A DNA stretch of 64,000 bases from Solirubrobacterales bacterium (GTDB lineage: Bacteria > Actinomycetota > Thermoleophilia > Solirubrobacterales > 70-9), in NCBI GenBank assembly GCA_036524775.1, contig DATDBO010000040.1, forward strand, positions 2,085-66,084, in the 5' to 3' direction. A program made the translations under genes and the position numbers. Position 1 is the stretch's first letter; the number at the start of each line of letters is the position of its first letter. Below, piece after piece: positions 14,590 through 36,853 of this stretch. Below the pieces are notes generated by a model. The model ran no database searches, was not told the origin of the DNA, and saw only the letters and a program-made list of their open reading frames with translations.

Positions 14590-15900
<1,311 letters not shown>

Positions 15901-17882: not shown

Positions 17883-17959
17883 CGCAAAAACGAGTTTAAC
17901 ACCTTTAATTCCCTAAGTCCTGGAGTTTGCGATCTTGGTAAATCGGGAAAAATCGGGAA

Positions 17960-18014
17960 ATAGAGCGACATCCTTCCTAAGAAGTAGGCCCCAGGTTCGA
18001 ATCCTGTTCGGGCG
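17960..18014 (+). repeat. diverged copy of the tRNA-Arg 3' portion (D-loop to 3' end)
   Basis: ATAGAGCGACATCCTTCCTAAGAAGTAGGCCCCAGGTTCGAATCCTGTTCGGGCG compared with the tRNA 3' 55 nt. Confidence 0.75.
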
Positions 18015-18019
18015 TTTAT

Positions 18020-18370
18020 TCTCTTAACTCGCGAAGCGGCGAAGCTGGTCGGGGTGCCGCTCTTCGCCGAGGACGAGTCGCGGCGCGCGCTCGAGGCCGC
18101 GCGCCTCGAGGAGCGGTTGGCGGTCCTGCCGCAGGGATCTGGCTGCCGGGGGCCGAAGAGCCTGTTGTCGGGACCGTCGCCGGCTGCGTCTAGCGCGCCT
18201 CGACCTACCTCCTAAGTGAGGAGGAGGCCCGAGGGATCGTCGATCGGCAGGTCGAGACGATCGAGAGGGAGTGGGCGACGTCTGCGAGCCAGCTCGCCTC
18301 AGCGAGGTCGACAGCGCCGCTTTCGCGCTGGCGCCTTCCTCAATCTCTTCGCGACCGAGAAGTACTAATC
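18020..18370 (+). pseudogene. possible remnant of a HipA-like toxin C-terminus
   Basis: Frame-hopping translations (..VGVPLFAEDESRRALEAARLEERLAVL.., ..IVDRQVETIEREW.., ..LSEVDSAAFALAPSS..) resemble HipA C-terminal regions. No intact ORF. Confidence 0.2.
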
Positions 18371-18414
18371 AACCCTTGCAGAGGTGTGGCAAACCCGACC
18401 ATCTGACGATATGA

Positions 18415-18445
18415 AAGCCCAGGCCCGTCTCGGGGGCCTGGGCTT
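18415..18445 (-). terminator. stem-loop downstream of the 395-aa gene
   Basis: AAGCCCAGGCCC / GGGCCTGGGCTT 12-bp stem with a 7-nt loop, followed on the minus strand by TCATAT. Confidence 0.55.
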
Positions 18446-18463
18446 CTCTTCGTGAGGTGCGGC

Positions 18464-19651
18464 CTAGTTGACTTTGGTGACTTTCAGGGAGACGACTCCC
18501 TTGTATTTGCCGGTGTTGTAAGAGCCGTCCGCCGGTTGGTTGGGACAGCTTTTCCCGTTGGCGATCTGATGGTCGACGCCGCTCAGGTTCGCTTTGGCTT
18601 CGACCGTGGCGCCGCTGCCCGAGCCGAGGTTGACGTATTCCATGCCGGAGCGGGTTTGGCCGGACACGGTGATCGTGCAGGCGAGCCCCGGCAGGGTGAT
18701 GGTGCCCTGGCAGAGAAACAAGCTGCCCACGTACGGCGCGCCACCGGTAAGTCCGAGCGTGTACGAGCATCCGGCTGCATGGGTCACAGTGGCCGGTATG
18801 GCGCCTGCGATCACGCAACCGCTGTACTCCGGAGACACGACCAGTTCACTCGCGTCTGCGACCAGGCCGTTCGGAAAGAGCGGCTCGGTACTGAACGTCG
18901 CGGTATTGCATTTCACAATTCCCGCGGCCGTCGTCAGTTCGATCTTCTGGATTTTTTTGCCGCCGATTTCGCCGGCCACCTGTTCGCCGCCGATCGCCGC
19001 CGGGTAAAGGTCGGAGTGGAATTCGGCGTACTGTTCGCCGCCGCCGATCACCGAGAAGCCCGGGTAGGGGACGACGTGCACGCCCGTGGGGCTGCCGCCG
19101 TTTTCGCCTTTGAGGCTCCAGGTCGTGGTGTAGGTGCCATTGGAGTAGCTGCCTTTGGCGCCGCCTTCAAGCACTTCGTATTTGATCCCGGTCGCCTGGG
19201 CGTGGATCTTCACCGTGGCGCTCGCTCCGGAGCCTTCGTTTTCGAAGGTCGCCGCGAGGCCGGTCTGGGGAAGGATCCTCTGTTTGAGCCCGGACTGAGA
19301 GACTTCGATGCCGGTGCATCCGGCTCCGCCGATGTCAAAGGAGCCGTTGACGCCTTCCACCGGCGGGTGGAAGATCAGCCCGCAGCCGTTCATTTTCACA
19401 GCGGCACAGAAGCTGGACGAGGGCGCGAAGGTTTCGCTTGCTTTGCCGAGCGTCCCGGTCAGTTTCGGGCTGATGCAACCGGTTGAAAAGAGCAGGTTGA
19501 GTTTCCCGGTTTCACCGGTCGCTTCTCCCGTCAGCGCGGCCGGATAGTCGTCAGCGACGAAGAACCCGGGCGATGCAGATGCTGCGCCCGGAAATGCGAT
19601 CAGGGCCAAAGCCGTGAACACGGCAAGGCCCAAAGCCTTGATGCTCTTCAC
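18464..19651 (-). CDS. secreted 395-aa protein made of two homologous about 180-aa Cys-containing domains
   Basis: Signal peptide MKSIKALGLAVFTALALIAFPGAASA. Internal duplication (DYPAALTGEATGE / LYPAAIGGEQVAGE; GSYSNGTYTTTWSLKG / GSYNTGKYKGVVSLKV). Confidence 0.7.
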   Translation of the reverse strand: MKSIKALGLAVFTALALIAFPGAASASPGFFVADDYPAALTGEATGETGKLNLLFSTGCISPKLTGTLGKASETFAPSSSFCAAVKMNGCGLIFHPPVEGVNGSFDIGGAGCTGIEVSQSGLKQRILPQTGLAATFENEGSGASATVKIHAQATGIKYEVLEGGAKGSYSNGTYTTTWSLKGENGGSPTGVHVVPYPGFSVIGGGEQYAEFHSDLYPAAIGGEQVAGEIGGKKIQKIELTTAAGIVKCNTATFSTEPLFPNGLVADASELVVSPEYSGCVIAGAIPATVTHAAGCSYTLGLTGGAPYVGSLFLCQGTITLPGLACTITVSGQTRSGMEYVNLGSGSGATVEAKANLSGVDHQIANGKSCPNQPADGSYNTGKYKGVVSLKVTKVN

Positions 19652-19735
19652 ATTGCCTCCCTTGCCCGACGACCTTCAGCCGCCGGGATCGACTCGTGAT
19701 CAAATCGAGCCGAGCCTCTCAGGCAGAGTAAGCCG

Positions 19736-20968
19736 TCACCTCACCAATGGGGGAAGCAGCTTTCCACTGTTGCGCCATGCCCAGCGCGACTCCTCCAGCT
19801 CCTGCAGGCGCAGGGCGACTTCAATCTCGGCCGTCTCGGCGCTGAGCGATTTGCCGAGCCGCTCCTCGATCGTGCGCAGGCGGTTGGCGACCGTGCGCCG
19901 GCTGACGCCAAGCGCCGAGGCGGCCGAGGAGAGGTTGCGGGAAGCGTTGAAGTAGGCGCGCAGGGTTTCGCGCATGGTGGCGCCGTCGTCGCCTGTGCCT
20001 GAGAGCGGCTCGAGGTAGAGCTCGCGCAGGGAGGCGGAGAGAAGCTCGTCGCAGTGCGCCGATGCGAGCAGTGCTACTTCGCTGTAGCGGGTTGTGGTCT
20101 TGCCCTGGCGCAGAGCGATCGGCAGGGCGGCCCTGGCCTGGTGGTGGGTGAAGCGCCAGCCGCCGAGCCCCCTGCCGCACTCCCCAAGGGCGAGGGTGAC
20201 CTCTGGGGACCAGCCCCGCTCGAGGGCTCGCCCCAGCTCCTCGTGCTCGAGCGGGCGGCGTCCTCCGAGCCAGACCCAGACCATCCCCTCGAGGCGCTGG
20301 ATCAGGAGAAGACGCCGATCCAGTGCCCTGGCCAGGCTGCGGACCGCCTCTGCTGCCCCAGGACCTGCGGCGATCGCGCCGAGGTGGTGGGCGTCCAGCT
20401 CATAGCCGAGCTCGGCGACGTCGATCAGCTCGCCGGCGAGGAGGCGCTCGACCCTCTCTGCCCGCCTGCGCTCGGGAGACTCAGGGCGGCTCTCCGCCTC
20501 CTTGACGTGCTCTTCTCCCACCGCTGCCAGGAGACGATCGAAGAGGGCTGCCTGGGAGCGCAGGAGGCGCTTCAGCTCTTCTCCGCGCAACAGCTCGTCG
20601 TCCTGGGTTTCCTCGATCAGGACATCGCCCAGGAGCGTGTAGCCGGCGAAGTAGCGGCGCAGGACGGTGTCGAGGCTGATGCCGTTTCGGGCGGCGAAGC
20701 GGGCCTGGCTCAAGAGCAGATCTGGGAAGGCGGGCGGGTGCTCCTCGCCTGCTTCGATCCCGGCCAGGCCGTAGTCCAAGGCGCCGGCGACAGCGGCGCG
20801 GAGCCCCTCCGCGTAATCCGGGTCCGCGGCCTCGGTGGGGTCGGCAATCGCGTAGACGCGAGTGAGCAGCGACTCCTCGATCTCCCCGCGGCGGGCTCGT
20901 AGGCGCTCTGCGAGCTTTGCCCGTGCCTGCTCAGCGCGGCGGGCGGGCGTGCTTGCGGCCCTTCCCAT
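19736..20968 (-). CDS. PucR/CdaR-family transcriptional regulator
   Basis: C-terminal PucR-type HTH (NLSSAASALGVSRRTVANRLRTIEERLG). Start placed at ATG 20968 (MGRAAST); the track ORF extends to 21103. Confidence 0.75.
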   Translation of the reverse strand: MGRAASTPARRAEQARAKLAERLRARRGEIEESLLTRVYAIADPTEAADPDYAEGLRAAVAGALDYGLAGIEAGEEHPPAFPDLLLSQARFAARNGISLDTVLRRYFAGYTLLGDVLIEETQDDELLRGEELKRLLRSQAALFDRLLAAVGEEHVKEAESRPESPERRRAERVERLLAGELIDVAELGYELDAHHLGAIAAGPGAAEAVRSLARALDRRLLLIQRLEGMVWVWLGGRRPLEHEELGRALERGWSPEVTLALGECGRGLGGWRFTHHQARAALPIALRQGKTTTRYSEVALLASAHCDELLSASLRELYLEPLSGTGDDGATMRETLRAYFNASRNLSSAASALGVSRRTVANRLRTIEERLGKSLSAETAEIEVALRLQELEESRWAWRNSGKLLPPLVR

Positions 20969-23900
20969 CTCCGGTCCCCCCCGCGCGCTTGCGCTTGGCG
21001 GCGCGCTTGCCCTTCCTCGCCACGCAGCGCCCCCGGCGACGTACCTTGCCTTTGTTGCAGCGGGGGCGAGTAGGCGCTGCCTTGAAGTTGCCGCTCCCCT
21101 CAAATGCCATCAAGGCGGGCGTGGCGTCCTCGGGCACCCGCGGGGCGCCCTGGCAGGCTTCGCCTTCGCATGCTGCCGGAGGACTGGGGGGCGGCGAGAA
21201 ACCGCCGTTCACCCTTGCGTCATAGACGTCGATCAGGCCGTAGTCCTGTGGAAGGAGGCCCTCGAGGGTGGTGAAAAAGGCGTCCTCGCCGTCGGGGCTC
21301 GCGTCGAGGAAGGTCGAGTCGACCGGGCTCTGCCCGGAGGAGATCAGGCTCAGGCAGCCTTCGGAAACCGGGAGGTAGGTGGGGCTTTCATCGCTGCAGT
21401 CACCCGATCCGGGCGCCTGCCACTCGTATACGTCCTGCTTGCCGTTGGTGTCGGCGAGGACAAGGGACTCGAAGCTGTTGAAGAAGACGCGATCTCCGTT
21501 GTCGGAGAGATAGCGGGGCTGGAAGAGGTCTGACTGGAAGCGAGGGACCGTGGCGGCTCCCCAGTACTCCGGCTGGCCGGTGATGCCTTCCGCGAGCCGC
21601 CGCCCCGCGGGCCGTGCACCCGAAGGATTGCAGGAGATGCACGCCAGGATTCCGCTCGCCTCGTAGCGGTAGACCTCAGCGTCGCAGAGGCCGCCCTGCT
21701 CGCCGCAGGGAACTGGGCTCCTGACGTCGGTGTTGTCATAGCCCGCCGTGCGCTCGGCCAGCTCGGGGCTGTTCGACATGAAGACCAGGGCGCTGCCGTC
21801 GGCGCTGACCCGCGCGGTGCGTTTGATCGGCGCGATCGATATTGGTTCCCCATAGGGGTTATTCCCGTCGACGGCTCCTTTCGGGGTGCTCGTCAGCGTC
21901 GCGACGAACCGCGTCGTCCCGCCCTCCGCAAAGTAAACGTTCGGCTCGCCGAAGACCGCGCCTTCGCTCTGCGCCTGCGCTGATGCCTCGGTCGAGGCGA
22001 AGTAGACGCGCGAGAGGTCCTCGCTTGCGCCGAGGATGCTCTCGATCACGCCTTCGGCGATCAGCTCCGATGCCGCCGGTTTCGCGTCTGCGTCGAAGCG
22101 GTAGAGGTTGCCGCTCAGCGGGCCGTTAACCACAGTGAAGAGCGCCTTGGTCCCCTGCGGGTTGCCCGCCTGGAAGCGGACCGGGTCGGGGGTGAGGGGC
22201 TCAGAGATCGCGATCGTGCAGGCCCTGGTCGGCTGTTTGCATTTGCCTTCGGGGTTGAACGTGCTCTGCTCCTGGTCGGCGTTGATCCGCAGGTAGAGCG
22301 GCCCCTCGCTGCCGGCGGTGCTGCGGCTCCAGAAGACCCGTTTGCCGTCCTCGGAGACAGCGCCCTGCAGGCTGCCGAAGCGGTTGATGTTCCAATAGGT
22401 CTGCGCGTTGAAGTCGCCCACGGTCCCCGCCGAGGAGTCCTGCGCGGCGGCTTTGCCGTCGGGCAGGACGCTGAGCAGGCGAAGCTGCCCTGAGCCGGTG
22501 GAGAGATAAAGCTGGTAGATCGGCCGCGGGAACGGATTCACCGTGGTCGCATCAGAGGCCTCGGGGGTGAGCGCTTCGTCGGCGCGGAAGACCGAGGTCG
22601 CGCCGTCAGCCGAGAAGCCCTGGACCTCGGGCAGGTATCCGAACTCCTCGATCTGCTCGATCGGCGAGCAGCTGAGCGCGGCGAAGGCACCGGCGTCGTT
22701 GTCGCGTCGGTAGAGCTGGTTGTAGCCGCTCGGGGCGCAGGAATCGGGCGGCGCCTCACCGGCTCTGCTGAGCCAGGAGAGCCAGGCGTGTGAGAGGTCG
22801 GGCGAGAAGGCCTTGAAGGGGTTCTCGAGGAACTCCGCCCCTTTGCCCTTGGGCGAGAGCGATTCGCTCTGCCAGCCTTCCGCGGGAGTTCCTCTCTCGT
22901 TTCGGGTCGCCAGGTACTGGTTGGTATAGGGGGCTGACTCGGGGTCGGCAAAGGCGCGGTAGGAGGAGAAGGTGAAGCTCTCTCCGTCCACGGAGCTCTG
23001 GTCGAGGAAGGTCGGATAGCCAGGGGTGTTGAGCAACGTGAGTACGTCGCCGTTGTTTTTGTCGAGCGGGGAAACCAGCTCGTAGGCGCGGCAGTCGGGC
23101 AGCGAGGCGGAGGGGCCGGTGCGGAGGGCCTGGTTAGGGCACGCGGTATCGGCTGTCACGGGCGGGGCGAAAGTGGTGAAACTTCGCTCCCCGGAGATCA
23201 CCTCGGGGTGGAAGGGGTTGTCGGCAATCACCCGGTAGTGGTAGGTGGTACCCGGCTTGAGCGAGAGAAGCTGGGTCGAGCGGGCAATCGCCTCCTCGCC
23301 TGAGCCGAGGCTGAGCGTGGGGCCGTCTTTGGAGTTCTGGAAGCCGTTTGCCTGGTAATCGGGGCCCTCTTCGATGTACTGGAAACGGGCGGTTGCGCCA
23401 ACGCCGAGGGGGTTTGCCTCGACGTGAAGGCGGGCTGAGTCGGTGCCGACCTCGGTCGAGAAGATGCTGCCGAAGAGAATCGGCGGCAGGGTGGTGAATT
23501 CTGCTTTCTCGCCTTTGACTTCACCGTCGGCGTTCTCGGCTATCGGGCGGAAGTAGTAGGTGGTTTCGGGCTCGAGGCAGGTTTCTTCGCTGGGAACCGC
23601 GCAGACATTGGTCGCCTCGACCGTGTGGTTTTTGAAGTCCGCTGGCGTGTCGGGGCTGTTCGGCGTCACCTCGGCGACCGGCTCGAATTCGTCCCCGTTT
23701 GCTTCAAAGCTCTCTTTGTCGATGTATTCGAAGCGGGCGTGGGAGGCTTTGCCCTGGGGGTTGAAGGCGACCCTGAGCGTCGCCTTGACGCTGCCCACCG
23801 GGGAGGCCTCCGCCGTGCCGGGGACGAGCAGGGGGCCGGGTGGGGGTTGGGTGACGCGGAGGAGCTTGCCGTTGTTGATGGCGAGGAGGTCGCCCGAGGC

Positions 23901-25001
23901 GTCCTGGTGGAAGGCGAGGCTGTCGACGCGGCCCTCCGCTTCAAGCAGAGAGAAGAAGACCTTGATCTGGGTGCCGGTCAGATCGTACTTACGGAGGACG
24001 TTGCGGATGAGGTCTTCCTTAGTGCCCACAAACAGGTTGTTGGAGGGCTCGAGGGCGATGGCGAAGGTGTTGCTGCCCGCGATCCTGCCCCCCTCCGCCC
24101 AGCTCGTGACCAGGGTGCCGGTTGGGTCGTATTTGCGCACGCCTGGTTCGAAAGCCGTGGAGCCAGAGACTGCAATGTAGAAGTCGCCAGCAGGGTCGAC
24201 GGCGAGGCTCTGAACCCGCCCGACCGTCTCCGGCAGCAGCATCTGCGGGCCGAGCAGGGTCCCGTCGGGGTTGAATCTCTGGATCCTGGTGTTGAAGCCT
24301 TCCGACTCGGCGCTGCCGAGCTTTCTGCTGTCGGCGACGTAGAGGACACCGCCGGGTCCGACCGCAAGCGGCAGCCCTCTGCCCAGAGTCGAGAAGAAGA
24401 AGCCTTCCCGCGCCGGGAACGTTTTCACGCCTGGTTCGCTTTCCACCTCGCTCTCCTCCCCCGCCCCGCAATTGGCGGGAAGGGTGCAGAGGTTGGCTTT
24501 GGTCACCTGGTCGACTTCACCTCCCACCATCCATTCGAAGCCGCCGTCGGCGTCGAACTTCTGCACACGGTGGTTTTCGGTTTCGCTGACGTAGACGGAA
24601 TGGGAGGCGGAGTCGACCGCGACCTGCTCGGGGCGGAGGATCTGGCCCGCGCCTGAGCCGCCGATGCCTTTGAAGCAGGCCACGCTCGGCGGAGTCGCAG
24701 CCGGGCCGCAGGTCTGCGGGGCGGCGGTGCTCCCATCGCGCACCCCCCAGCCGAAGGCGAAGAGGAACTCGCCCGAGGCTTCGAAGACGTCGATGCGGTT
24801 GTTGTTCGCGTCGCCGAGGTAGACGCGGCCGTTTGAAGTGTCGACACCGAGCCCGCGGGGGTCTTCGTATTGCCCGGCGCCGGAGCCCTGGGAGCCGATG
24901 ACGAAGTCGGCTGAGGCTGCTGGGACTAAGGCGAGAAGCGCAAGCAGGGCGAGCGCCGGGATGAGGGCCGCGCGGCGTGTGCGGGTACTCGCCCCCCTCA
25001 T
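20931..25001 (-). CDS. 1356-aa secreted protein: NHL beta-propeller, two Fn3-like domains, PD40/TolB-like repeats, Cys-flanked polybasic tail (paralogue 2)
   Basis: Signal peptide ...VPAASA|DF. NHL-type repeats (RGLGVDTSNGRVYLGDANNNRIDVF). TTYYFRP/TTYHYRV Fn3-like ends. DGKRVFWS/SRVYFAS/DGSALVFMS/GDRVFFNS PD40-like strands. Tail CNKGKVRRRGRCVARKGKRAAKRKR. Confidence 0.85.
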   Translation of the reverse strand: MRGASTRTRRAALIPALALLALLALVPAASADFVIGSQGSGAGQYEDPRGLGVDTSNGRVYLGDANNNRIDVFEASGEFLFAFGWGVRDGSTAAPQTCGPAATPPSVACFKGIGGSGAGQILRPEQVAVDSASHSVYVSETENHRVQKFDADGGFEWMVGGEVDQVTKANLCTLPANCGAGEESEVESEPGVKTFPAREGFFFSTLGRGLPLAVGPGGVLYVADSRKLGSAESEGFNTRIQRFNPDGTLLGPQMLLPETVGRVQSLAVDPAGDFYIAVSGSTAFEPGVRKYDPTGTLVTSWAEGGRIAGSNTFAIALEPSNNLFVGTKEDLIRNVLRKYDLTGTQIKVFFSLLEAEGRVDSLAFHQDASGDLLAINNGKLLRVTQPPPGPLLVPGTAEASPVGSVKATLRVAFNPQGKASHARFEYIDKESFEANGDEFEPVAEVTPNSPDTPADFKNHTVEATNVCAVPSEETCLEPETTYYFRPIAENADGEVKGEKAEFTTLPPILFGSIFSTEVGTDSARLHVEANPLGVGATARFQYIEEGPDYQANGFQNSKDGPTLSLGSGEEAIARSTQLLSLKPGTTYHYRVIADNPFHPEVISGERSFTTFAPPVTADTACPNQALRTGPSASLPDCRAYELVSPLDKNNGDVLTLLNTPGYPTFLDQSSVDGESFTFSSYRAFADPESAPYTNQYLATRNERGTPAEGWQSESLSPKGKGAEFLENPFKAFSPDLSHAWLSWLSRAGEAPPDSCAPSGYNQLYRRDNDAGAFAALSCSPIEQIEEFGYLPEVQGFSADGATSVFRADEALTPEASDATTVNPFPRPIYQLYLSTGSGQLRLLSVLPDGKAAAQDSSAGTVGDFNAQTYWNINRFGSLQGAVSEDGKRVFWSRSTAGSEGPLYLRINADQEQSTFNPEGKCKQPTRACTIAISEPLTPDPVRFQAGNPQGTKALFTVVNGPLSGNLYRFDADAKPAASELIAEGVIESILGASEDLSRVYFASTEASAQAQSEGAVFGEPNVYFAEGGTTRFVATLTSTPKGAVDGNNPYGEPISIAPIKRTARVSADGSALVFMSNSPELAERTAGYDNTDVRSPVPCGEQGGLCDAEVYRYEASGILACISCNPSGARPAGRRLAEGITGQPEYWGAATVPRFQSDLFQPRYLSDNGDRVFFNSFESLVLADTNGKQDVYEWQAPGSGDCSDESPTYLPVSEGCLSLISSGQSPVDSTFLDASPDGEDAFFTTLEGLLPQDYGLIDVYDARVNGGFSPPPSPPAACEGEACQGAPRVPEDATPALMAFEGSGNFKAAPTRPRCNKGKVRRRGRCVARKGKRAAKRKRAGGTGDGKGRKHARPPR

Positions 25002-27838
25002 CCAGCCTGCCGCCCGCCCTCGCGCTTCGCCTTGCCACCCTTCCCACAGCCCGCCTGGACCACAGGCCGCGCCTTGAAGCGCTTGCCGTTCTGCCCGCCG
25101 AAGCGAGCATCTGCGCGGTGCCTGCTGGCGCAGAGGTCGGTCGAGTTGACGATCAGCCCCTTCTTCGCCCCCTGCATCCGCACCACGACTTTGGTCAGGG
25201 GCGCATCGGGGACGTCCTCGAAGGTCGCCCTGATCCCGCCTCCCTTGGAGTCGATCCTGGCGACCGCTTCGACGTCGATCAAGCCGTGCAGGTCGGCGAC
25301 GAAGTCAGGCAGGTTGTGGTTGGAGGAGCGCAGGATCACCGGGCCGCTCAGCGGCTGCTCCAAGAGCGGGCTGTAAGCGGTGGCCTGGCCGTAGGTTGCG
25401 CCTGCGGGGCAGCTCTTGGCGGCGAACTGCACCCTGGTGCAGATCGTCCTGACGTGGGCCTGGTCGAGGAAGGCCGAGCGGGGGAAGCGCAGGACCAGGC
25501 CTTTGAGGTTGGCGTCGCCCGCCCTTGGCCTGTAGGTGCCGGTCAGGGCCGGGTGGGCGCCTCGCTTGGTGCCGCCCTTCAGCTTCAGGGAGAGCCTTGG
25601 CTTGAAGCCGAGGCTGGCGCAGTTGGCCGCCTGGAAGCGCGATGCCAGGGAGAGCGGGGAGTCGTCGTGGGAGCCGAAGACGTCTGCTCCACCGCCCCAG
25701 AGGGTCGCTCCGACGGCGAAGGGCTCACACGAGGTCGGGTTGAGGGTGAAGTCGGGCTTGTCGACATAGACCCTGACGTCGCGGACCTTCAGCGGGATGC
25801 CGGCGAGGATGTGGGGGATCGGGTCTGATGAGGAGCCGTCGGCGGTGACTTCCGCCGTTCTGTGGTCGATCCGCAGGGCCTGGCGGGTGACCACCGCTCC
25901 GACGTCGAAGGGGCCCGCGACAGCGGGGACGATCGCGACCACGCTCAGCGGGGCGCCTTTGTAGGGGCCTGCTAGGTAGATGCGGCCGGGGACGTAGGTC
26001 AGGACGGCGCCTACCCCCGCTCCGGCCATCACGCGGCCGATCTGTGAAGAGGCCGGGCAAGACGGTGAGGCCAGCTCCAGGGCTCCCTCGCCCTCTCCGG
26101 TCCTCGTCCTGGCCTGGGCTATTGAGGCCTCTGAGCACTGCGAGGTGCCCGCCAGCTTGGCGACCATCCCTGGAGGGAGCTTGGCGCTGAACTTGGTCAG
26201 GTCCTGATCGCCGTCTCTTCTGGTCAGGCGCATGTAGAAGGGGGAGTGGGAGCCGGCGTTGTTGTTGTTGGTCCCTGCTTGGAAGCCCGGGGCGAAGGGC
26301 GGGGTGCCTCCGGAGGGGCAGGGGGAGGCTCCGGGGCCGGTGATCACCTCGAAGCTCGAGCTGGTGGTCACAGGGGGACCTCCGGCCCAGGGGGTGAGCA
26401 CGGCCTTGGCCTCGTGGGTGCCGCAGGCGGGTGGCGACACGAGAGGCGATCTGGCTCCTTCGCGGAAGTGCAGCCTGAAGGAGGAGAAGGGAAGCTCGGG
26501 GATCTCATCGGCGGTGGTGATCAGCTGCCCGGTCACGGGATCGGGCTGCACCTTGATCGGCTGCTTGACGAGGATGCCGAGCTCGGGGCTCTTGATCACG
26601 ACGTAGAGGGCAAGCAGGGTGCCGAAGGGGTTGCGGTAGGGCTCGGCGAGGAAGAGGGAGCCCTTGAGCGTCTGGTCCAAGAGCGGCGTCTCCACCTCGA
26701 CCGTGCCCAGCTTGGATGCGTCTGGGCAGCCCTCTCCGGGCAGGGCTTTGACGGTTTCCTCCTGCAGGTCCGCGTTGGTGCAGACCTCGAGGCCCTCGGC
26801 AGAGGAGGGGTTGGCGGTCATCCCCACCGGCAGGGTGACGACGGTCTTGCGGATCTCAGATGCGGCGATCCCCTCGGGGGAGGTCAATCCTTCGTCGTGG
26901 ACCTCGAGCGAGAAGTCGAGGCCCGAGGGGCTCTCGGCAGCCCTGGTCGTCGGCTTGGCCTCGATCGAGGGGCTGAAGCCTAGTTTGGTGCAGCCGGTCA
27001 TCCCGATCGGGTTGGGCGGCAGGGCGTCGTCGTGGGTGAGGACGCTGCCTTTGGCGCTGTCCCCCTGCCAGGAGAAGACCTCGTAGCTAGTGGCGAGCGG
27101 TCCCTGGCAGGAGCGGGGCAGGGTGAGGAGGGGGATGTCGGGGGCGTTGGTCGGGCAGTTGCCGTAGGAGGGCGGCTTGGGGTAGGGGCCTTCCGGGATC
27201 ACCGGGGTCCCCCCTCCAATGTTCGAGACGCACTGGCCGCGGAAGGGGTCGTGAGCGGGGTCTGCGGGGTTGCCCCAGAGGGTCAGGACCGAGGCCAGGA
27301 CACCGGCCGTCTGTGGGGTGTTGGTGACCCGGGCGATGCCGTTGTATGGGGGACTGTCGCTCAGGTCGATCTCGATCGTGACCGGGGTGTTGGCGGCGAC
27401 GAAGCCGAGTTTGAAGAGGACGCCCGGGGGCGGGTCGAGGTTGAAGACGGGTGCGTAGCTGGTGAGCAGTTCCAACTCGGTCGCCGCGTGGCCGACCGCT
27501 GAGCTGTCGGGACAGAACGAGTTGCGCACACCCGGAATCGAAGTGAGGAAGTCGACGGTCTGACAGCGCGGCACCGCGGTCGGGTCGGCGACGATGCCGG
27601 CGATCTGGGCGAAGGCGCCGCTCTTGAATTCGCCGTCGGGAGTAGTGGGGGCGAGCCGGTTGAAGAAGACCCTGGTCTTCATCTGAAAGGGGTGGGAGCC
27701 GGCCTGGGTGACGGGCGAGTCGTCTTGGTTGGTGAAGGTGACGTCGAACTCCTCGAGGCCGAAGGCGGCCTGGGCGGAGGGAGCAAGGAGGAGCGCGGCA
27801 AGGGCCGCGGTGGTGAGTACGTGCATCAGGCGCTTCAT
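24998..27838 (-). CDS. 946-aa secreted protein built from repeated modules, basic Cys-containing tail
   Basis: Signal peptide ...APSAQA|AF. Recurrent G-x-H-P strands and module pattern (see findings). ATGA overlaps with both neighbours. Confidence 0.8.
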   Translation of the reverse strand: MKRLMHVLTTAALAALLLAPSAQAAFGLEEFDVTFTNQDDSPVTQAGSHPFQMKTRVFFNRLAPTTPDGEFKSGAFAQIAGIVADPTAVPRCQTVDFLTSIPGVRNSFCPDSSAVGHAATELELLTSYAPVFNLDPPPGVLFKLGFVAANTPVTIEIDLSDSPPYNGIARVTNTPQTAGVLASVLTLWGNPADPAHDPFRGQCVSNIGGGTPVIPEGPYPKPPSYGNCPTNAPDIPLLTLPRSCQGPLATSYEVFSWQGDSAKGSVLTHDDALPPNPIGMTGCTKLGFSPSIEAKPTTRAAESPSGLDFSLEVHDEGLTSPEGIAASEIRKTVVTLPVGMTANPSSAEGLEVCTNADLQEETVKALPGEGCPDASKLGTVEVETPLLDQTLKGSLFLAEPYRNPFGTLLALYVVIKSPELGILVKQPIKVQPDPVTGQLITTADEIPELPFSSFRLHFREGARSPLVSPPACGTHEAKAVLTPWAGGPPVTTSSSFEVITGPGASPCPSGGTPPFAPGFQAGTNNNNAGSHSPFYMRLTRRDGDQDLTKFSAKLPPGMVAKLAGTSQCSEASIAQARTRTGEGEGALELASPSCPASSQIGRVMAGAGVGAVLTYVPGRIYLAGPYKGAPLSVVAIVPAVAGPFDVGAVVTRQALRIDHRTAEVTADGSSSDPIPHILAGIPLKVRDVRVYVDKPDFTLNPTSCEPFAVGATLWGGGADVFGSHDDSPLSLASRFQAANCASLGFKPRLSLKLKGGTKRGAHPALTGTYRPRAGDANLKGLVLRFPRSAFLDQAHVRTICTRVQFAAKSCPAGATYGQATAYSPLLEQPLSGPVILRSSNHNLPDFVADLHGLIDVEAVARIDSKGGGIRATFEDVPDAPLTKVVVRMQGAKKGLIVNSTDLCASRHRADARFGGQNGKRFKARPVVQAGCGKGGKAKREGGRQAG

Positions 27839-30800
27839 CGCTGAAACCTCCGCTCGTGGTTTGGTCCTCGTGCCCGCTGGCGCTTTGCGCGTTTGCCCTT
27901 CCTCGCCACGCAGCGCCCCCGGCGGCGCACTTTGCCTTTGGCGCAGCGGCGGATGGTTGGAGTGGCCTTGACGTTGCCGTCCCCCTCGAACGCCGCCGAG
28001 GCGGGGGTCGCGTCCTCGGGCGCCCTGGGGGCGCCCTGGCAGGCTTCGCCTTCGCAGGCAGCCGGTGGGCTCGGGGGCGGCGGGAAGCCGCCCTCCACGC
28101 GTGCGTCATAGACGTCGATCAGGCCGTAGTCCTGGGGGACGAGGTCCTCGAGGGTGGTGAAGAAGGCGTCCTCTCCCTCGGTGCTTGCGTCGAGGAAGGT
28201 CGAGTCGACGGGACTCTGGCCGGAGGAGATCAGGCGCAGGCATCCTTCTGAGGAATCGAGGTAGGCGGCGCTTTTGGTGGTGCAGTCGCCGCTCCCGGGT
28301 GCCTCCCACTGGTAGACGTCCTGCTTGCCGTTGGTGTCGCCGAGGACAAGGGCCTCGAAGCTGTTGAAGAAGACGCGCTCGCCGCTGTCGGAGAGGTAGC
28401 GCGGCTGGTGCAGCTGGGACTGGTAGCGGGGGACCGAGGCGGCGCCCCAGTACTCCATCTCACCGTCGATCCCGTTTTCCAGCTCCTGCCCCGCCGGCCG
28501 GGCCCCGCTCGGGTTGCATGAGACGCAGCGGAGCTTTCCGGCGCCGCCTTCTGCCTCTGCGTCATAGCGGTAGACCTCGGCGTCGCAGATGCCGCCCTCC
28601 TCGCCGCAGGGGACGGGGCTGGCGGCGTCGGTGTTGTCATAGCCCGCCACCCGCTCTGCCAGCTCGGGGCTGTTCGACATGAAGGCGAGCGCCTCGCCGC
28701 CGGGGCTGACCCGGGCGGTGCGGAAGATCGGCCCGGTTGAGATCGGCGTGCCGTAGGGGTTGTTCACGTCGGCGGCGCCCCCCGGAGAGCTCGTCAGCGT
28801 CGCGACGAAGCGCGTCTCCCCGTTCTCGGTGAGGTAGACATTGGGCTTGCCCGCCTCGGCCCCTTCGCTTAAGGCCTGCGCCGAGGCTTTGGTCGAGGCG
28901 TAGTAGACGCGCGAGAGGTCCTCGCTGGCGCCGAGGATGCTCTCCACCACCCCTTCGGCGATCAGCTCTGAGGAGGGGGGCTGCGCTTTTGCGTCGAAGC
29001 GGTAGAGGTTGCCCGCCAGCGGGCCCTCCCCCACGATCGTGAAGAGCGCCCCGGTGCCCTGCGGGTCGCCGAGCTGAAAGCGGGCGGGAGCGGAGCTTAC
29101 GGTTTCTGAGACGGCGATCGTGCAGGCCCGGGTCGGCTGTTTGCATTTGCCTTCGGGGTTGAACGTGCTCTGCTCCTGGTCGGCGTTGATCCGCAGATAG
29201 AGCGGGCCCACGTTGCCGGCAGTGCTGCGGCTCCAGAAGACCCGCTTGCCGTCTTCTGAAACCGCGTTCAGGAGGCTGCCGAAGCGGTTGAGGTTGGAGT
29301 AGGCGGCGGCGTTGGTGTCGCCAGGGGTGCCCGCCGAGGAGTCTTTGTCGGCGGCCGTGCCGTCGGGCAGGACGCTCAGCAGGCGCAGCTGGCCAGTCTC
29401 GCTCGCAAGATAGAGCTGGTAGATCGGCCGTGGGAAGGGGTTGACGGTGGTCGCAGCGGAGGCATCGGGGGTGAGCGCCTCGTCGGCGCGGAAGACCGAG
29501 AGGCTGCCGTCAGCCGAGAAGCTCTGCACTTCGGGCAGGTATTGGAGGGGGTCTGCGACGTGCTCGATCGGCGCGCAGCTGAGCGCGCTGAAGTCATCGC
29601 TCGAGTTGTCGCGGCGATAGAGGTTGCGGAAGCCGATCGGGGCGCAGGGGTCGGGCGGGGATTCGCCCGCCGCGGTGAACCAGGAAAGCCAGCTGACCGA
29701 GAGGTCGTCGGTGAAGGCCTTGAAGGGGTTCTCGAGGAACTCGGCGCCCTTGCCCTGGGGGGAGAGCGACTCGCTTTGCCAGCCCTCTTCGGGGTTGCCC
29801 AGCTCGTTGCGGGTCGCCAGGTACTGGTTGACGTAGGGGGCCGACTCTGGGTCGGCAAAGGAACGGTAGGAGGAGTAGGTGAACGCCTGCCCGTCGCTTG
29901 AGCTCTGGTCGAGGAAGGTCGGGAGGTTGAACTGGTTCAGCAAGGTGAGGACGTCGCCGTTGTTTTTGTCGAGCGGGGAGACCAGCTCGTAGGCGCGGCA
30001 GTCAGGCAGCGCTGCCCCGGCGCCGGTGCGGAAGGCCTGGTTGGGGCATTCGGTATCGCCTGCCGACGGTGGGGCGAAGGTGGTGAAGCTGTGCTCGCCG
30101 GAGACGACCTGGGGGTGGAAGGGGTTGTCGGCGATCACCCGGTAGTGGTAGGTGGTGGCGGGCTCGAGGCCGAGCAGCTGGGTCGAGCGGGGGATCGTCT
30201 CCTCGCCCGCTCCGAGGTCGATCGTGGGGCCGTCTTTGGCGTTCAGGAAGCCGTTCGCCTGATAGTCGGGGCCTTCCTCGATGAACTGGAAGCGGGCGGT
30301 TGCGCCCACGCCCAGGGGGTTTGCTTCGACGTGCAGGCGGGCCGAGTCGGTGCCGATCTCAGTCGAGAAGATCTGGCCCAAGAGGACTGGGGGCAGGGTG
30401 GTGAATTCCTCTTTCTCGCCGGTGACGGCGCCGTCGGCGTTCTCGGCGATCGGGCGGAAGTAGTAGGTCGTTTCGGGCTCGAGGCAGGTCTCTTCGCTGG
30501 CGACGACGCAGACGTTGGTCCCCTCGACCGTGTGGATGTCGAAGTCGCCTGGCGTGTCGGGGCTGTTGGGCGTAACCTCGGAGATCGGCTCGAATTTGTT
30601 TTCGTTTGCCTCATAGCTCTCTTTGTCGATGTATTCGAAGCGGGCGTGGGAGGCTTTGCCCTGAGCGTTGAAGGCGACCCTCAGCGTCGCCTTGACGCTG
30701 CCCACCGGGGAGGCTTCCGCCGTGCCAGGTACGAGAAGGGGGCCCGGTGGGGGCTGGGTGATGCGGATGAGGTCGCTGCCGTCGGTGGCAAGCAGGTCGC

Positions 30801-31848
30801 CTGAGGCGTCCTGGTAGAAGGCGAGGCCGTCGACGAAAGATTTCAGCGGCGGGAAGAAGAGCTTGGTCTGGGCCCCAGCTGAGTTGTACTCGTGGAGCAC
30901 ATAGCGGCTTTTTTCTTCGACACCGAGGAAGAGGTCGTTGCTGGGCTCGAGGGCGACGGCGGTGATGTTGCCGGGAATCCTGCCCCCCTCCGCCCAACTC
31001 GTGACCAGAGTGCCGGCTGGGTCGTACTTGCGCACGCCGCTTTCCAGGTCTGAGCGATCGGTTGCAACGTAGAAGTGGCCGGCCGGGTCGACGGCGAGGC
31101 TCTGAACCCGCCCGACCGTCTCCGGCAGCAGCATCTGCGGGCCGAGCTGGGTTCCGTCGGGTTTGAGCTTCTGGATCCTGGTGTTGAAGCCTTCCGACTC
31201 GGCGGCTCCGAGCCTTCTGCTGTCGGCGACGTAGAGGGTGCCGCCGGGGCCGACCGCGAGCGGTAGGCCTCCCAGCGTCGAGAAGAAGAACCCTTCCTGC
31301 GCCGCCGCGGCGCTCGTCTCTTTCCCCGCCCCGCAATTGGCGGGAACGGTGCAGCGGTTGGCTTTGGTCACCTGATCCACTTCGCCTCCAACCATCCACT
31401 CGAAGCCGCCATCGGCGTCGAACTTCTGCACGCGGTTGTTGAAGGTTTCGCTGACGTAGACCGCGTGGAAGGTGGAGTCGACCGCGACCTGCTCGGGGCG
31501 GAGGATCTGGCCTGCGCCGGATCCGGGAATGCCTTTGAAGCAGGCGAGGCTCGGCGGGGTGGCGGCGGGGCCGCAGGTCTGGGGGGCGGCGGTGCTCCCG
31601 TCGCGGACCCCCCAGCCGAAGGCGAAGAGGAACTCGCCCGAGGCTTTGAAGACGTCGATGCGGTTGTTGGCGGCGTCGGCGAGGTAGACGCGGCCGTTTG
31701 AGCTGTCGACTCCCAGCCCCCGCGGGTTCTCGTACTGCCCGGCGCCGGAGCCCTCAGAGCCGATGACGAAGTCGGCGGAAGCTGCGGGAGCGAAGGCGAA
31801 GAGCGCGAGAACCGTAAGTGCTGCGAGGAGCGGCGTGCGATGTCTCAT
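27835..31848 (-). CDS. 1337-aa secreted NHL/Fn3-like/PD40-like protein (paralogue 1)
   Basis: Same architecture and near-identical N- and C-terminal segments as 20931..25001. Tail CAKGKVRRRGRCVARKGKRAKRQR. Confidence 0.85.
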   Translation of the reverse strand: MRHRTPLLAALTVLALFAFAPAASADFVIGSEGSGAGQYENPRGLGVDSSNGRVYLADAANNRIDVFKASGEFLFAFGWGVRDGSTAAPQTCGPAATPPSLACFKGIPGSGAGQILRPEQVAVDSTFHAVYVSETFNNRVQKFDADGGFEWMVGGEVDQVTKANRCTVPANCGAGKETSAAAAQEGFFFSTLGGLPLAVGPGGTLYVADSRRLGAAESEGFNTRIQKLKPDGTQLGPQMLLPETVGRVQSLAVDPAGHFYVATDRSDLESGVRKYDPAGTLVTSWAEGGRIPGNITAVALEPSNDLFLGVEEKSRYVLHEYNSAGAQTKLFFPPLKSFVDGLAFYQDASGDLLATDGSDLIRITQPPPGPLLVPGTAEASPVGSVKATLRVAFNAQGKASHARFEYIDKESYEANENKFEPISEVTPNSPDTPGDFDIHTVEGTNVCVVASEETCLEPETTYYFRPIAENADGAVTGEKEEFTTLPPVLLGQIFSTEIGTDSARLHVEANPLGVGATARFQFIEEGPDYQANGFLNAKDGPTIDLGAGEETIPRSTQLLGLEPATTYHYRVIADNPFHPQVVSGEHSFTTFAPPSAGDTECPNQAFRTGAGAALPDCRAYELVSPLDKNNGDVLTLLNQFNLPTFLDQSSSDGQAFTYSSYRSFADPESAPYVNQYLATRNELGNPEEGWQSESLSPQGKGAEFLENPFKAFTDDLSVSWLSWFTAAGESPPDPCAPIGFRNLYRRDNSSDDFSALSCAPIEHVADPLQYLPEVQSFSADGSLSVFRADEALTPDASAATTVNPFPRPIYQLYLASETGQLRLLSVLPDGTAADKDSSAGTPGDTNAAAYSNLNRFGSLLNAVSEDGKRVFWSRSTAGNVGPLYLRINADQEQSTFNPEGKCKQPTRACTIAVSETVSSAPARFQLGDPQGTGALFTIVGEGPLAGNLYRFDAKAQPPSSELIAEGVVESILGASEDLSRVYYASTKASAQALSEGAEAGKPNVYLTENGETRFVATLTSSPGGAADVNNPYGTPISTGPIFRTARVSPGGEALAFMSNSPELAERVAGYDNTDAASPVPCGEEGGICDAEVYRYDAEAEGGAGKLRCVSCNPSGARPAGQELENGIDGEMEYWGAASVPRYQSQLHQPRYLSDSGERVFFNSFEALVLGDTNGKQDVYQWEAPGSGDCTTKSAAYLDSSEGCLRLISSGQSPVDSTFLDASTEGEDAFFTTLEDLVPQDYGLIDVYDARVEGGFPPPPSPPAACEGEACQGAPRAPEDATPASAAFEGDGNVKATPTIRRCAKGKVRRRGRCVARKGKRAKRQRARGPNHERRFQR

Positions 31849-31926
31849 CTGTGTGTTCTCCGTAGCTCCCAGATACTTCTGTGGGTGGATGTGTGCGTCA
31901 CGTTCGAGTGTGGTGTGGTGTGGTCA

Positions 31927-31959
31927 CCGACCCCGGGTGGCCAGGCCACCCGGGGTCGG
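31927..31959 (-). terminator. perfect 16-bp GC-rich inverted repeat between the collagen-like gene and paralogue 1
   Basis: CCGACCCCGGGTGGCC A GGCCACCCGGGGTCGG. No U-tract follows (CA-rich CCACACCACACCACAC instead), so it may be an attenuator or RNA-stability element rather than a classic terminator. Confidence 0.45.
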
Positions 31960-31975
31960 CTTCAGATCTCCGTCC

Positions 31976-32848
31976 CTACCCAGCGGTCGGCCTGGTGGCA
32001 GCCCAAGAGCCGCCGCCTTTTGCTTCGTTGGCGGGGACCGTGAGTTCGAAGTTCAGAGGAACCCCGCTCGAGAGGTCGGTTTCCCCGAACGCGGCGACTG
32101 GCGGCGATGCGTTGGTGAGTGACTGTTCGGAGACCCCTTCCGCTTCGTACAGGCAGAGATGGCCGGGCAGCGCTGCCGGTTCAGACGGGAAGGAGCCAGG
32201 GCACTCCGGAGGTGCGTTGACCGTGCCCTGGTCCGCCCAGGTGACGTAGTGGAGGGTCAGGCCGCCGGGAATCCGCAGCGGGTAGGAGATGCTGATCCTC
32301 GCCTTGGCGACGTTGATCGCGCTGAAGTGCCAGACCCCGGTCAAGGTCGCGCCTTCGGGAAGCACGCACTGGCCGCCGGGGCAGGTTGGCCCGGGCGCTC
32401 CCGTAGCGCCGGTGGCGCCCGTGGCGCCAGCCGGTCCCGTCCCGCCTACTTCGCCGTCGCAGACGACGTTCACGCCGCTGGCCGAGGTGAGTTCGACGCC
32501 GCCCTCTTCGCATACTTCTTCGTTTGAGGCTTCTTCGCCTGGTTCGAGGGGGTTGGTGGTGACGCCTTTGCCCGCGGCGCCCGGGGATCCGTTCGATCCG
32601 TTGGCGCCGGCGTCGCCCTTGTCACCCTTGGCTCCTGCCGACCCTGCGGGTCCCGCTGGGCCTGCTGGACCGGCCGGGCCTTTCGGGCCTTTCGGTCCCC
32701 TGGGGCCTTTTTTGGCTTTGGCCGAGGCGGTTGCCTTGCCGTCGTCTGAGCTGGAGGCGGCGTAGGCGCCTCCCAGCATTGCGAAGACCAGGGCGATCAC
32801 CGAGATCACGCCCGGGATGCCGAAGCGGTTGCGTAGTGGCGAGAGCAT
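31976..32848 (-). CDS. collagen-like (GXY repeat) protein with N-terminal signal anchor and a Cys-containing C-terminal globular domain
   Basis: MLSPLRNRFGIPGVISVIALVFAMLGGAYA, then GPRGPKGPKGPAGPAGPAGPAGSAGAKGDKGDAGANGSNGSPGAAG and GGTGPAGATGATGATGAPGP. Start at ATG 32848 with RBS AAGGAGAAG; the track ORF extension to 33043 is unsupported. Confidence 0.8.
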   Translation of the reverse strand: MLSPLRNRFGIPGVISVIALVFAMLGGAYAASSSDDGKATASAKAKKGPRGPKGPKGPAGPAGPAGPAGSAGAKGDKGDAGANGSNGSPGAAGKGVTTNPLEPGEEASNEEVCEEGGVELTSASGVNVVCDGEVGGTGPAGATGATGATGAPGPTCPGGQCVLPEGATLTGVWHFSAINVAKARISISYPLRIPGGLTLHYVTWADQGTVNAPPECPGSFPSEPAALPGHLCLYEAEGVSEQSLTNASPPVAAFGETDLSSGVPLNFELTVPANEAKGGGSWAATRPTAG

Positions 32849-32974
32849 TCGAATCTCTTCTCCTTGTCCCGTGAGCCCCTCTGCCGGCCGCTTCCCTTGG
32901 CGGCTCCCGTGGTGCTCGGTTATGTGGTCCCTGTAACTGCGTCCCTGCCCGCTCTGTGAACGGACCGTGGCGAG

Positions 32975-33003
32975 ACTGTAAACAAAGACCTTTTTAATGT
33001 CAA
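32975..33003 (-). promoter_or_regulatory. near-consensus promoter TTGACA-17-TACAGT upstream of the collagen-like gene
   Basis: Read on the minus strand in an AT-rich patch. It would give a leader of about 120 nt. Confidence 0.45.
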
Positions 33004-33153
33004 GGAGAACGTTTCTGAAAGAAAGAGAACTGTCTCCCCTCACGGGGCTTTCCGCATGAGCAAGCGAGGATGGCCGGGTACACCGCCGGTACCCAGCCTT
33101 TGGCCCAGGTCAAGCTCAGACGTGTCTGGCACGCCGAAAAGCGTGCGCGAGGA

Positions 33154-33753
33154 TCAGCCCCCGTCGGGGCGATCCGGGTACAGCTCGTCGATCGTGACGA
33201 GGGCTCGGTAGGGCGGCGCGGCGCGCCTCCCGGCATCGTCCAGGTCGTCCTCGATCGCGGCTTCGATCGCCTCACCGCCGCCGGCCAGGCGGTCGACGAC
33301 GGCGACCACGGCGACCGGATGGAGGCCCTGCTCGCGGATCCGCTCGATCGCCTTAACGGTCGAGCCGCCGCTGGTGACGGTGTCCTCGACCACGAGCACC
33401 CTGTCACCCGCCTCTACAGGGCCCTCGACCCAGCGCTGCAGGCCATGCTGCTTGCGCTCGCCGCGGACGAAGAAGCCGACCAAGTCCTCGCCGGCTGGAA
33501 CCGCGAGGGCGGCGCAGGAGAGTGGGATCGCGGCGGTCGCCGGTCCGCCGACAGCGGTCGCTCCGGCCTCCACCGCCGCCGCAGCGATCAGCTCTCCGGC
33601 GGCACGAAAACCAGTCGGCCGCAGCAGCGCCCGCCGTGCATCGACGTAGTACTGCGCCGTCGCCCCACTCGACAACGTCACCTCGCCGACGATCAGCGAG
33701 TGCTCACGCAGCTCGGCGAGCAGCGTTCGCTTGGCGGCGTCGAGGTCGCTCAT
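33154..33753 (-). CDS. pyrE: orotate phosphoribosyltransferase
   Basis: PRPP-binding loop VLVVEDTVTSGGS and typical length. Confidence 0.9.
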   Translation of the reverse strand: MSDLDAAKRTLLAELREHSLIVGEVTLSSGATAQYYVDARRALLRPTGFRAAGELIAAAAVEAGATAVGGPATAAIPLSCAALAVPAGEDLVGFFVRGERKQHGLQRWVEGPVEAGDRVLVVEDTVTSGGSTVKAIERIREQGLHPVAVVAVVDRLAGGGEAIEAAIEDDLDDAGRRAAPPYRALVTIDELYPDRPDGG

Positions 33754-36154: not shown

Positions 36155-36178
36155 TCTTACGGATGCCCCGGCGCGAGG

Positions 36179-36853
36179 CTACTGCGCGAGCAGGGCTACT
36201 GAGTTGTTGAGGGCGTGGAGGACGATGCCGGGGACTATCGAGCCGGTCCGCTCGTAGAGCAGGCAGAGGATCACGCCGAAGGCGATCAGCGGGGGGACGG
36301 CGCCGGCGCCGGTGACGAAGTGCATCGCGCCGAAGATCGCGCCGGCGATCAGCGCGGCGGCGATCGCCGGCAGGCGGGTGCGCAGGCCGCCGAAGAGCAT
36401 GCCGCGGAAGCAGACCTCCTCGCTGATCGGCGCCGCAACGGCGATCAACAGCACCTGCAGCGGCCAGGTGCCGAACGATTCGGCGATGTCGTCCTGTTCG
36501 GGTGAGCCGAAGATGCCGACGTAGATCGCGGCAAAGGCGAGGTAGGCGATGGCCGCGACGACCATCCAACCGATCGCTTCGCCGCCGAAGCGCCGCACGC
36601 CGAGCCGCCGTAGCGCCTCGCGCAGCGAGCTCTCCCCCCAGCGGCTCGCGACCAGCAGCGGCACGACGAGGAAGCCGAGCGCCGCGCCCAGCTGGACGAC
36701 CACGTTGGCGCCGGTGCTGAGGTCCCCGCCTTCCGGCGGGTTGTCGATCAGGATCGCCGGGATACCGAGCAGGATTCCCGCGCCGAGCGCGATCAGCAGC
36801 CCGCCGATCGCCATCTGCGGGCCCCACGTCGCAGCAGGTAGTTTTGCCTCCAT
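36179..36853 (-). CDS. CPBP (CAAX) family intramembrane protease
   Basis: EEVCFRG, FGAMH and HALNN motifs. Confidence 0.8.
   Translation of the reverse strand: MEAKLPAATWGPQMAIGGLLIALGAGILLGIPAILIDNPPEGGDLSTGANVVVQLGAALGFLVVPLLVASRWGESSLREALRRLGVRRFGGEAIGWMVVAAIAYLAFAAIYVGIFGSPEQDDIAESFGTWPLQVLLIAVAAPISEEVCFRGMLFGGLRTRLPAIAAALIAGAIFGAMHFVTGAGAVPPLIAFGVILCLLYERTGSIVPGIVLHALNNSVALLAQ

Follow-up and report, generated by a model that had tools for sequence, protein, structure and literature searches.

The described systems closest to the locus analysed here are several kinds of exported repeat proteins. Fibrillar Gram-positive adhesins (antigen I/II C-terminal domains, Bap, MSCRAMM and 'periscope' repeat proteins) are Sec-exported strings of tandem immunoglobulin (Ig)-like beta-sandwiches, whose module number varies among relatives; bacterial collagen-like proteins (Scl1/Scl2, Legionella Lcl, Bacillus BclA) carry runs of Gly-X-Y (GXY) triplets between non-collagen domains; propellers of the NHL/PD40/TolB type occur in TRIM-NHL proteins, the PknD sensor domain, TolB and S9 peptidases. 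Our locus occupies positions 18464-33003 of a stretch of 64,000 nt from a Solirubrobacterales bacterium (assembly GCA_036524775.1, contig DATDBO010000040.1, positions 2,085 to 66,084), referred to below as the window. It is an operon of secreted propeller/Ig-repeat proteins with a collagen-like membrane protein and its own regulator. The propeller, Ig-module and collagen fold types are known; the conserved arrangement is new, and the family is undescribed and lineage-specific. Most likely, the cassette builds or decorates the cell surface.

The locus consists of six open reading frames (ORFs), all on the minus strand (Table 1), and each was found where the initial annotation, made from the sequence alone, had placed it. 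Two giant proteins (giant 1 and giant 2) are encoded on either side of a gene for a 946-aa protein, and both ATGA overlaps described for these three genes are present: the junction of giant 1 and the 946-aa gene, at 27835-27838, reads ...CAGCGATGAAGCGC with GGAGG upstream, and that of the 946-aa gene and giant 2, at 24998-25001, reads ...GCTGGATGAGGGGG. The start of the PucR-type regulator gene (ATG at 20968) overlaps the end of the giant 2 gene (stop codon at 20931-20933) by 38 nt, again as claimed. Translational coupling of the giant 1, 946-aa, giant 2 and regulator genes is supported at the sequence level. Codon-position GC marks the large ORFs as coding, with a GC content at third codon positions (GC3) of 0.82-0.86 that lies within the range of the other ORFs of the window (0.78-0.97), near its lower end.

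The anatomy of the cassette was counted by tblastn of the window proteins against 81 loci. In 69 of 77 cases the gene for a 946-aa homologue has the C-terminal ∼700 aa of a giant directly 5′ of it on the same strand; where the junction was resolved, the overlap measures exactly 4 nt in 42 of 53. Adjacency and overlap are kept across sequences diverged to ∼50% identity, and the pairs are often tandemly duplicated as units. The N-terminal part of the giant is variable, with NHL repeats in about half of the cases and Fn3-only or unassigned sequence in the remainder. A collagen-like gene is found 5′ of about one-fifth of the pairs; a PucR-type gene, then a homologue of the 395-aa protein gene, follows 3′ of a similar fraction. 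The giant/946-aa pair is the invariant core, and the collagen-like, PucR and 395-aa genes are frequent optional accessories, found in roughly 12-25% of loci. Conservation of the gene order, on which the initial annotation had staked its proposal of a co-assembled system, was observed in relatives at 55-78% identity: the complete order of collagen-like, giant, 946-aa, PucR and 395-aa genes recurs in locus L083 (78% identity) and parts of it in L082, L021, L018, L011, L005 and L001.

The 946-aa protein has a 100% identical NCBI entry, a hypothetical protein from a Solirubrobacterales metagenome-assembled genome; an exact search of the contig index with it gave no match. A word-index search found more than 3,270 relatives of the 946-aa protein, all unnamed and without Pfam domains, several of them on the same 2.5-2.8 Mb chromosomes. 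An exhaustive profile search extended the family to 9,595 clusters of 50% identity at E ≤ 1e-3 (3,858 at E ≤ 1e-30); the cluster members looked up had no names other than 'hypothetical protein' or automatic ones. Scanning one genome per species gave at least 587 loci; almost every one carries a Solirubrobacterales or Thermoleophilia label, and a single genome may contain four or more of them, at many chromosomal positions. The core unit has duplicated and diversified many times per genome; the window locus is not a single unusual case but one copy of a multi-copy, lineage-wide cassette. The claim that the system is undescribed stood up in Pfam, NCBIfam, PDB, PADLOC, PHROG and the literature, where the homologues are without described function; a literature search for NHL-repeat, collagen-like, beta-propeller or S-layer proteins of Solirubrobacterales, Thermoleophilia or Conexibacter returned nothing relevant.

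The Pfam scan of the six products, reported down to E ≤ 0.1, called NHL, Fn3-like, Collagen and the PucR helix-turn-helix (HTH) and GGDEF_2 domains, a composition matching the initial description. Giant 1 comprises, in order, a signal peptide, a six-blade NHL propeller, two Fn3-like domains, a PD40/TolB-like propeller, the motif CEGEAC and a polybasic, Cys-closed hairpin tail. The N-terminal propeller of the giants is bona fide NHL: PF01436 was matched with 57.5 and 45.8 bits (cut-off 20), and the region aligns with the TRIM71 NHL domain in four stretches (E 2e-26). The Fn3-like assignment comes from Pur_ac_phosph_N (33-34 bits, cut-off 30). The 'PD40-like' label of the initial annotation was borne out by fold and failed by sequence, where PF07676 gave 14 bits in giant 2 against a cut-off of 20.9 and no match in giant 1; some other members of the giant family do pass this cut-off. 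The last 737 aa of the giant were modelled as a single rigid propeller body (predicted local distance difference test score, pLDDT, 87; predicted template modelling score, pTM, 0.86). Foldseek matched this model with probability 1.0 to TolB, to the propellers of prolyl oligopeptidase and DPP-IV, to tricorn and to the nine-blade propeller of eIF3b, which supports a predicted PD40/TolB-like fold; no appended hydrolase or other catalytic domain is present in the model. Unlike known NHL/PD40 proteins, the giants unite both propellers in one secreted protein of 1.3 kaa with Fn3 domains between them, and the C-terminal propeller is much larger than the six blades of TolB, lacks a peptidase domain and ends in the Cys/polybasic tail.

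In that tail, CEGEAC is invariant after the propeller and is followed by a short, Cys-closed basic hairpin in the model, formed by the conserved motif RCxKGKxRRKxRCV. The giants are acidic overall and their last 40 residues carry a net charge of +18 in each; the last 40 residues of the 946-aa protein carry +9, and the polybasic, Cys-containing tails of the two core proteins are related, in line with the shared cationic tails noted initially. Giants 1 and 2 are paralogues, 78% identical, with a ratio of nonsynonymous to synonymous substitution rates (dN/dS) of 0.30 throughout, so giant 2 is maintained. In L003, L005, L082 and L083 a regulator gene of this kind stands directly 3′ of the 946-aa gene. 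As this is the arrangement in the closest relatives, giant 2 is a local duplicate, additional relative to the closest orthologous loci.

The 946-aa protein has a signal peptide, four homologous all-beta Ig-like modules of ∼230 aa (A-B-A′-B′, the homology being seen by profile-profile comparison), 18 Cys, 16 of which are invariant in the family, and the basic tail. It has no Pfam or NCBIfam family. PDB sequence searches gave nothing useful for it, alone or as a profile, nor for the 395-aa protein or the C-terminal domain of the collagen-like protein. A model predicted from a 52-sequence alignment is all-beta (pLDDT 84), with the antigen I/II C-terminus, integrin alpha legs, Bap, transglutaminase barrels, DUF11 and clumping factor as its best Foldseek matches; as a domain type, it would be a string of Ig-like sandwiches such as occurs in adhesin and receptor stalks. 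The fibrillar adhesins are thus its best structural matches, yet they share no sequence similarity with it and the template modelling (TM) scores do not exceed 0.3. As in the adhesins, module number varies, from four modules here to ∼15 matched stretches: relatives of 3,400-7,200 residues (P0241-P0247, P0384) contain 7-15 stretches matching the 946-aa profile, mostly its central modules, a pattern typical of fibrillar surface proteins, and one of them is annotated only as a hypothetical Actinomycetota protein. Unlike the adhesins, the 946-aa protein lacks both an LPXTG/sortase anchor and a known ligand-binding head, and it is part of an obligate pair with a propeller giant.

The collagen-like protein (PF01391, 41.6 bits, cut-off 27.2) consists of an N-terminal hydrophobic anchor, 16 GXY triplets, a Cys-containing insert, six more triplets and a divergent C-terminal domain of ∼120 aa. 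As with its described counterparts, a trimeric rod projecting a globular domain may be expected. The topology is reversed with respect to Scl, with the anchor at the N terminus, the head at the C terminus and no LPXTG; the rod is short and interrupted in comparison with known collagen-like proteins. NCBIfam families of the Scl1/Scl2 and Lcl type scored 36, 35 and 23 bits, against cut-offs of 400, 325 and 500. The anchor sequence MLSPLRNRFGIPGVISVIALVFAMLGGAYAA (32756-32848, minus strand; consensus MLSPLRNRFGIPGVISVIALVFAMxGGAYAA) makes the first 31 residues near-identical in 15 of 17 loci and across species; the remainder of the protein is far less conserved, and its neighbours diverge as well. 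Synonymous sites of these 31 codons are kept too, including the rare codons CCA and CTA, and the conservation could reflect either a dedicated targeting or anchor signal or a constraint on the RNA. Used as a homology query, the 48-aa N-terminal anchor matched short fragments only. Sixteen nucleotides past the stop codon starts a GC-rich hairpin with a perfect 16-bp stem and no T-run (folding free energy −38 kcal/mol). In 12 of 19 loci the collagen-like gene has an equivalent hairpin behind it (scored as beyond the shuffle mean minus two standard deviations), with unrelated sequences; the element may act as an attenuator or stabilise the mRNA 3′ end.

Upstream of the collagen-like gene, the near-consensus promoter reported initially, TTGACA-17-TACAGT, was recovered with 10 of 12 consensus matches. 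It is the sole sigma-70-like site in 17800-33300 (15.5 kb; 0.6 expected by chance), and its −10 context TTTACAGT is also present in L013, L060, L044 and L055. Between promoter and start codon we found a conserved leader of ∼90 nt, ACAGGGAC..ACCGAGC..GCCGC-AAGGGAA-GCGGC-CGGCAGAGGGGCTCACGGGACAAGGAG, ending 11 nt before the ATG. Its core, GGGCTCA[C/A]GGGACAAGGAG, occurs in 32 copies in 83 loci (32 sites in L002-L083), always immediately 5′ of the first cassette gene, be that the collagen-like gene or a giant, and a metagenome scan found it in at least 120 soil contigs (L084-L203), before collagen-like genes or long secreted ORFs starting V-R-[RS]-H-A-K-A-S. In loci without the collagen-like gene, a GTG start comes after the leader and opens the conserved N-terminal extension V-R-[RS]-H-A-K-A-[SP]-S-A-G-S, which lies ahead of the signal peptide in otherwise diverse secreted proteins (L004, L019, L029, L072, L077 and ∼40 metagenome loci, e.g. 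L095, L100 and L170).

Two nested helices of the leader are paired in 94.7% of cells, as compared with 19-48% in slid controls, one helix strand being fixed by the search pattern; variation in the helices is almost all C/U opposite G, with few true double changes. Because of these few double changes and the fixed strand, an RNA structure is no more than suggested. RNAalifold yielded no usable consensus from a 31-sequence leader alignment and the stability of the window leader is not unusual (z-score −0.39), so the suggestion derives from the pair counts. No family of Rfam 15 matched the leader at the gathering threshold (best scores 19 and 13.5 bits against 62 and 41). YSIRK-G/S signal-peptide motifs and the long stabilising 5′ untranslated regions (UTRs) of S-layer genes are natural comparators: here too, the collagen-like export segment is conserved far beyond generic need, and a long conserved leader precedes the first gene. 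Unlike those systems, the locus has no YSIRK Pfam match (E ≤ 0.1) and no SLH or other S-layer anchoring domain, and its leader belongs to no Rfam family.

The regulator matches HTH_30 (PF13556, 47.4 bits, cut-off 27) and GGDEF_2 (PF17853, 41.3 bits, cut-off 24.5), and scores 65 bits against a cut-off of 600 for the Rv1453 equivalog. On its 3′ side, after an 84-nt spacer, the 395-aa gene begins with GTG and has a ribosome-binding site of its own (GGGAGG). The duplicated-domain character attributed to its product was verified, with two homologous domains of ∼190 aa (internal repeat E 6e-7). The protein has no Pfam or NCBIfam family and no similarity to the 946-aa protein by BLASTP; its orthologue in L083, in the same position, is 62% identical.

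Each non-regulatory product has, as claimed, one N-terminal hydrophobic segment, and in the structural products it is accompanied by an AxA-type site and an even number of Cys. A topology scan found no C-terminal hydrophobic segment in any of them, and the collagen-like protein has no LPXTG-like motif. The initial statement that LPXTG and C-terminal transmembrane segments are absent therefore holds for the latter and needs amending for the former: an internal LPQTG occurs in the 395-aa protein (residues 127-131). Since it is internal rather than C-terminal and reads LPQSG in the L083 orthologue, we do not regard it as a sorting signal. The Pfam scan found no SLH, LysM or CWB2 family and no pilin, Cna_B or thioester-domain (TED) match in the products, and no sortase gene neighbours the cassette in the neighbourhoods examined; the sorting signal and neighbouring sortase that characterize sortase-dependent pili and MSCRAMM proteins are thus lacking. 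A thioester-domain reading of a conserved TQAGSHPF motif was dropped, as the motif does not fit the pattern TQxA[IV]W of such domains and Pfam gave no TED match. No catalytic family of Pfam or NCBIfam reaches its threshold in the locus products.

We consider it about an even bet that the locus represents a cassette, specific to Solirubrobacterales/Thermoleophilia, of Sec-exported, disulfide-rich, non-enzymatic binding and scaffold proteins that work jointly at the cell surface. In such a cassette the coupled giant/946-aa pair would form a stoichiometric complex, and the cationic tails would attach the acidic bodies either to one another or to the anionic wall. To judge from the place of its gene, first in order and with the hairpin after it, the collagen-like protein would be a more highly expressed, membrane-anchored trimeric tether; the co-transcribed PucR-type regulator and the leader would control expression, and paralogous cassettes may supply alternative surface or ligand specificities. 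Co-assembly, attachment to the wall by the basic tails and lack of catalysis are what we infer. Several observations weigh against this picture. The Foldseek TM-scores of the 946-aa model are low (0.1-0.3), so that a domain type is supported and a specific homology is not; enzymes (GH74, oligogalacturonate lyase, PAL and lactonases among them) are known with propellers of either kind; and the collagen-like, PucR and 395-aa genes accompany a minority of pairs and are thus not obligatory parts. With no LPXTG, SLH, LysM, CWB2 or neighbouring sortase, the mode of attachment is conjectural, and a ligand-responsive regulator belonging to the locus suits an inducible metabolic role at least as well as it suits a structural one. 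A more elaborate form of the surface model strikes us as doubtful: a self-assembling apparatus in which collagen-like trimers with the invariant anchor tether complexes of Ig rods and propeller giants through disulfide-closed polybasic tails, and in which cassettes and other large secreted proteins form one regulon through a structured 5′-UTR element.

The main rival is a substrate-capture or enzymatic role, which we also rate as unlikely. The locus would then be an inducible extracellular unit for substrate capture or degradation with the logic of a polysaccharide utilization locus (PUL), with propellers that are enzymes or binders of a soil polymer and an Ig-module protein that serves as scaffold or binds carbohydrate; each cassette would be switched on by its own small-molecule-sensing regulator. 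Such a role agrees with the many paralogous cassettes per small genome, in which the N-terminal modules vary and the core stays constant, and with the local PucR- or TetR-type regulators, though a regulator is present in only 12-25% of loci. Propeller enzymes are among the fold matches of the giant C-terminal model (GH74, oligogalacturonate lyase and also thiocyanate dehydrogenase), but these matches cover the generic propeller only. Likewise, the NHL region is weakly similar to the ScyF and SGL lactonase families, the ScyF match (NF035926) reaching 76 bits against an equivalog cut-off of 350 and involving single NHL repeats only. No catalytic family exceeds its threshold, and four annotated neighbourhoods contain no recurring glycoside hydrolase, lyase, peptidase or transporter gene. 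The likeness to SusC/SusD of Bacteroidota is one of logic only (an invariant adjacent pair, many paralogous loci, variable accessories, local regulators); the proteins are unrelated, envelope type and phylum differ, and no transporter or enzymes are associated. Somewhat less probable still is that functionally independent secreted proteins are merely co-transcribed, the collagen-like and 395-aa proteins having separate roles and no joint structure being formed. The presence of accessory genes in a minority of loci, the strong hairpin between the collagen-like gene and the giants, and the spacer and separate ribosome-binding site of the 395-aa gene would suit such independence. It is opposed by the adjacency and 4-nt overlap kept at ∼50% identity (69/77 and 42/53), by the tail motif common to both core proteins and by the leader, which always stands ahead of the entire cassette irrespective of the gene that comes first.

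Very improbable, in our judgement, is an origin as mobile-element cargo or from a phage, for instance as tail-fibre-like proteins at a tRNA-Arg integration site. A tyrosine integrase gene (14590-15849, plus strand) stands beside tRNA-Arg(CCT) (15827-15900, plus strand), the sole match of the Rfam scan, and a degenerate direct repeat of the 3′ 53 nt of this tRNA lies at ∼17962-18013; in L083 an integrase is found 1.2 kb downstream of the 395-aa orthologue. The initial annotation had the locus abut this hotspot, which proved incorrect: between the two lies a 2.1-kb islet that carries an HTH gene (16761-17882, minus strand) and is closed by the repeat at ∼18013, 450 nt before the 395-aa gene. The link between locus and tRNA hotspot is adjacency alone. 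The collagen repeats do match phage tail-fibre PHROGs, but these matches are limited to the GXY repeats, and other products match no phage or defence family. The cassette occupies many chromosomal positions within the same genomes, and the GC3 of the locus falls inside the range of the window ORFs. Defence, phage and plasmid readings were rejected, as PADLOC gave no match and PHROG and plasmid tblastn searches nothing beyond the collagen repeats.

Several other features of the window were recorded. To the left of the integrase, GC content falls to ∼0.60-0.66 over ∼8-14 kb. Upstream of the locus, at 35189-39446, lie genes for a YkuD L,D-transpeptidase, a CAAX/Rce1-like intramembrane protease and a class A penicillin-binding protein; these envelope genes are not kept beside the cassette in the other loci examined. 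An IS110-family transposase (DEDD_Tnp_IS110 and Transposase_20) is encoded at 48435-49721 on the minus strand. At 60639-63999 on the minus strand, MlaD/Mce-domain genes stand in a row (two encode 523 aa each, and a third is represented by its start); they look like part of an Mce-type lipid-uptake operon.

Table 1. Features of the locus, in window coordinates
Feature	Positions	Strand	Basis
Sigma-70-like promoter TTGACA-17-TACAGT	32975..33003	−	Motif scan
Conserved 5′ leader	32849..32936	−	Comparison across loci
Collagen-like protein, 290 aa	31976..32848	−	ORF, Pfam Collagen
GC-rich hairpin after collagen-like gene	31926..31960	−	Folding, position kept across loci
Giant 1, 1337 aa	27835..31848	−	ORF, Pfam, predicted structure
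946-aa protein	24998..27838	−	ORF, predicted structure
Giant 2, 1356 aa	20931..25001	−	ORF, paralogue of giant 1
PucR/CdaR-type regulator, 410 aa	19736..20968	−	Pfam GGDEF_2 + HTH_30
395-aa secreted protein, GTG start	18464..19651	−	ORF, internal repeat

Few soil Actinomycetota are as abundant as the Solirubrobacterales, and few have been studied so little. Several copies of a 7-15 kb cassette are kept in small genomes of 2.5-2.9 Mb, and the cassette must therefore matter to their lifestyle. The coupled giant/946-aa pair is an obvious target for complex prediction and structural studies, and the leader and the invariant N-terminal anchor offer experimental handles for regulation and targeting. 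None of the thousands of family members is annotated in the libraries searched; once a function is assigned, a noticeable part of what now counts as 'hypothetical' coding capacity in soil metagenomes would gain an annotation.

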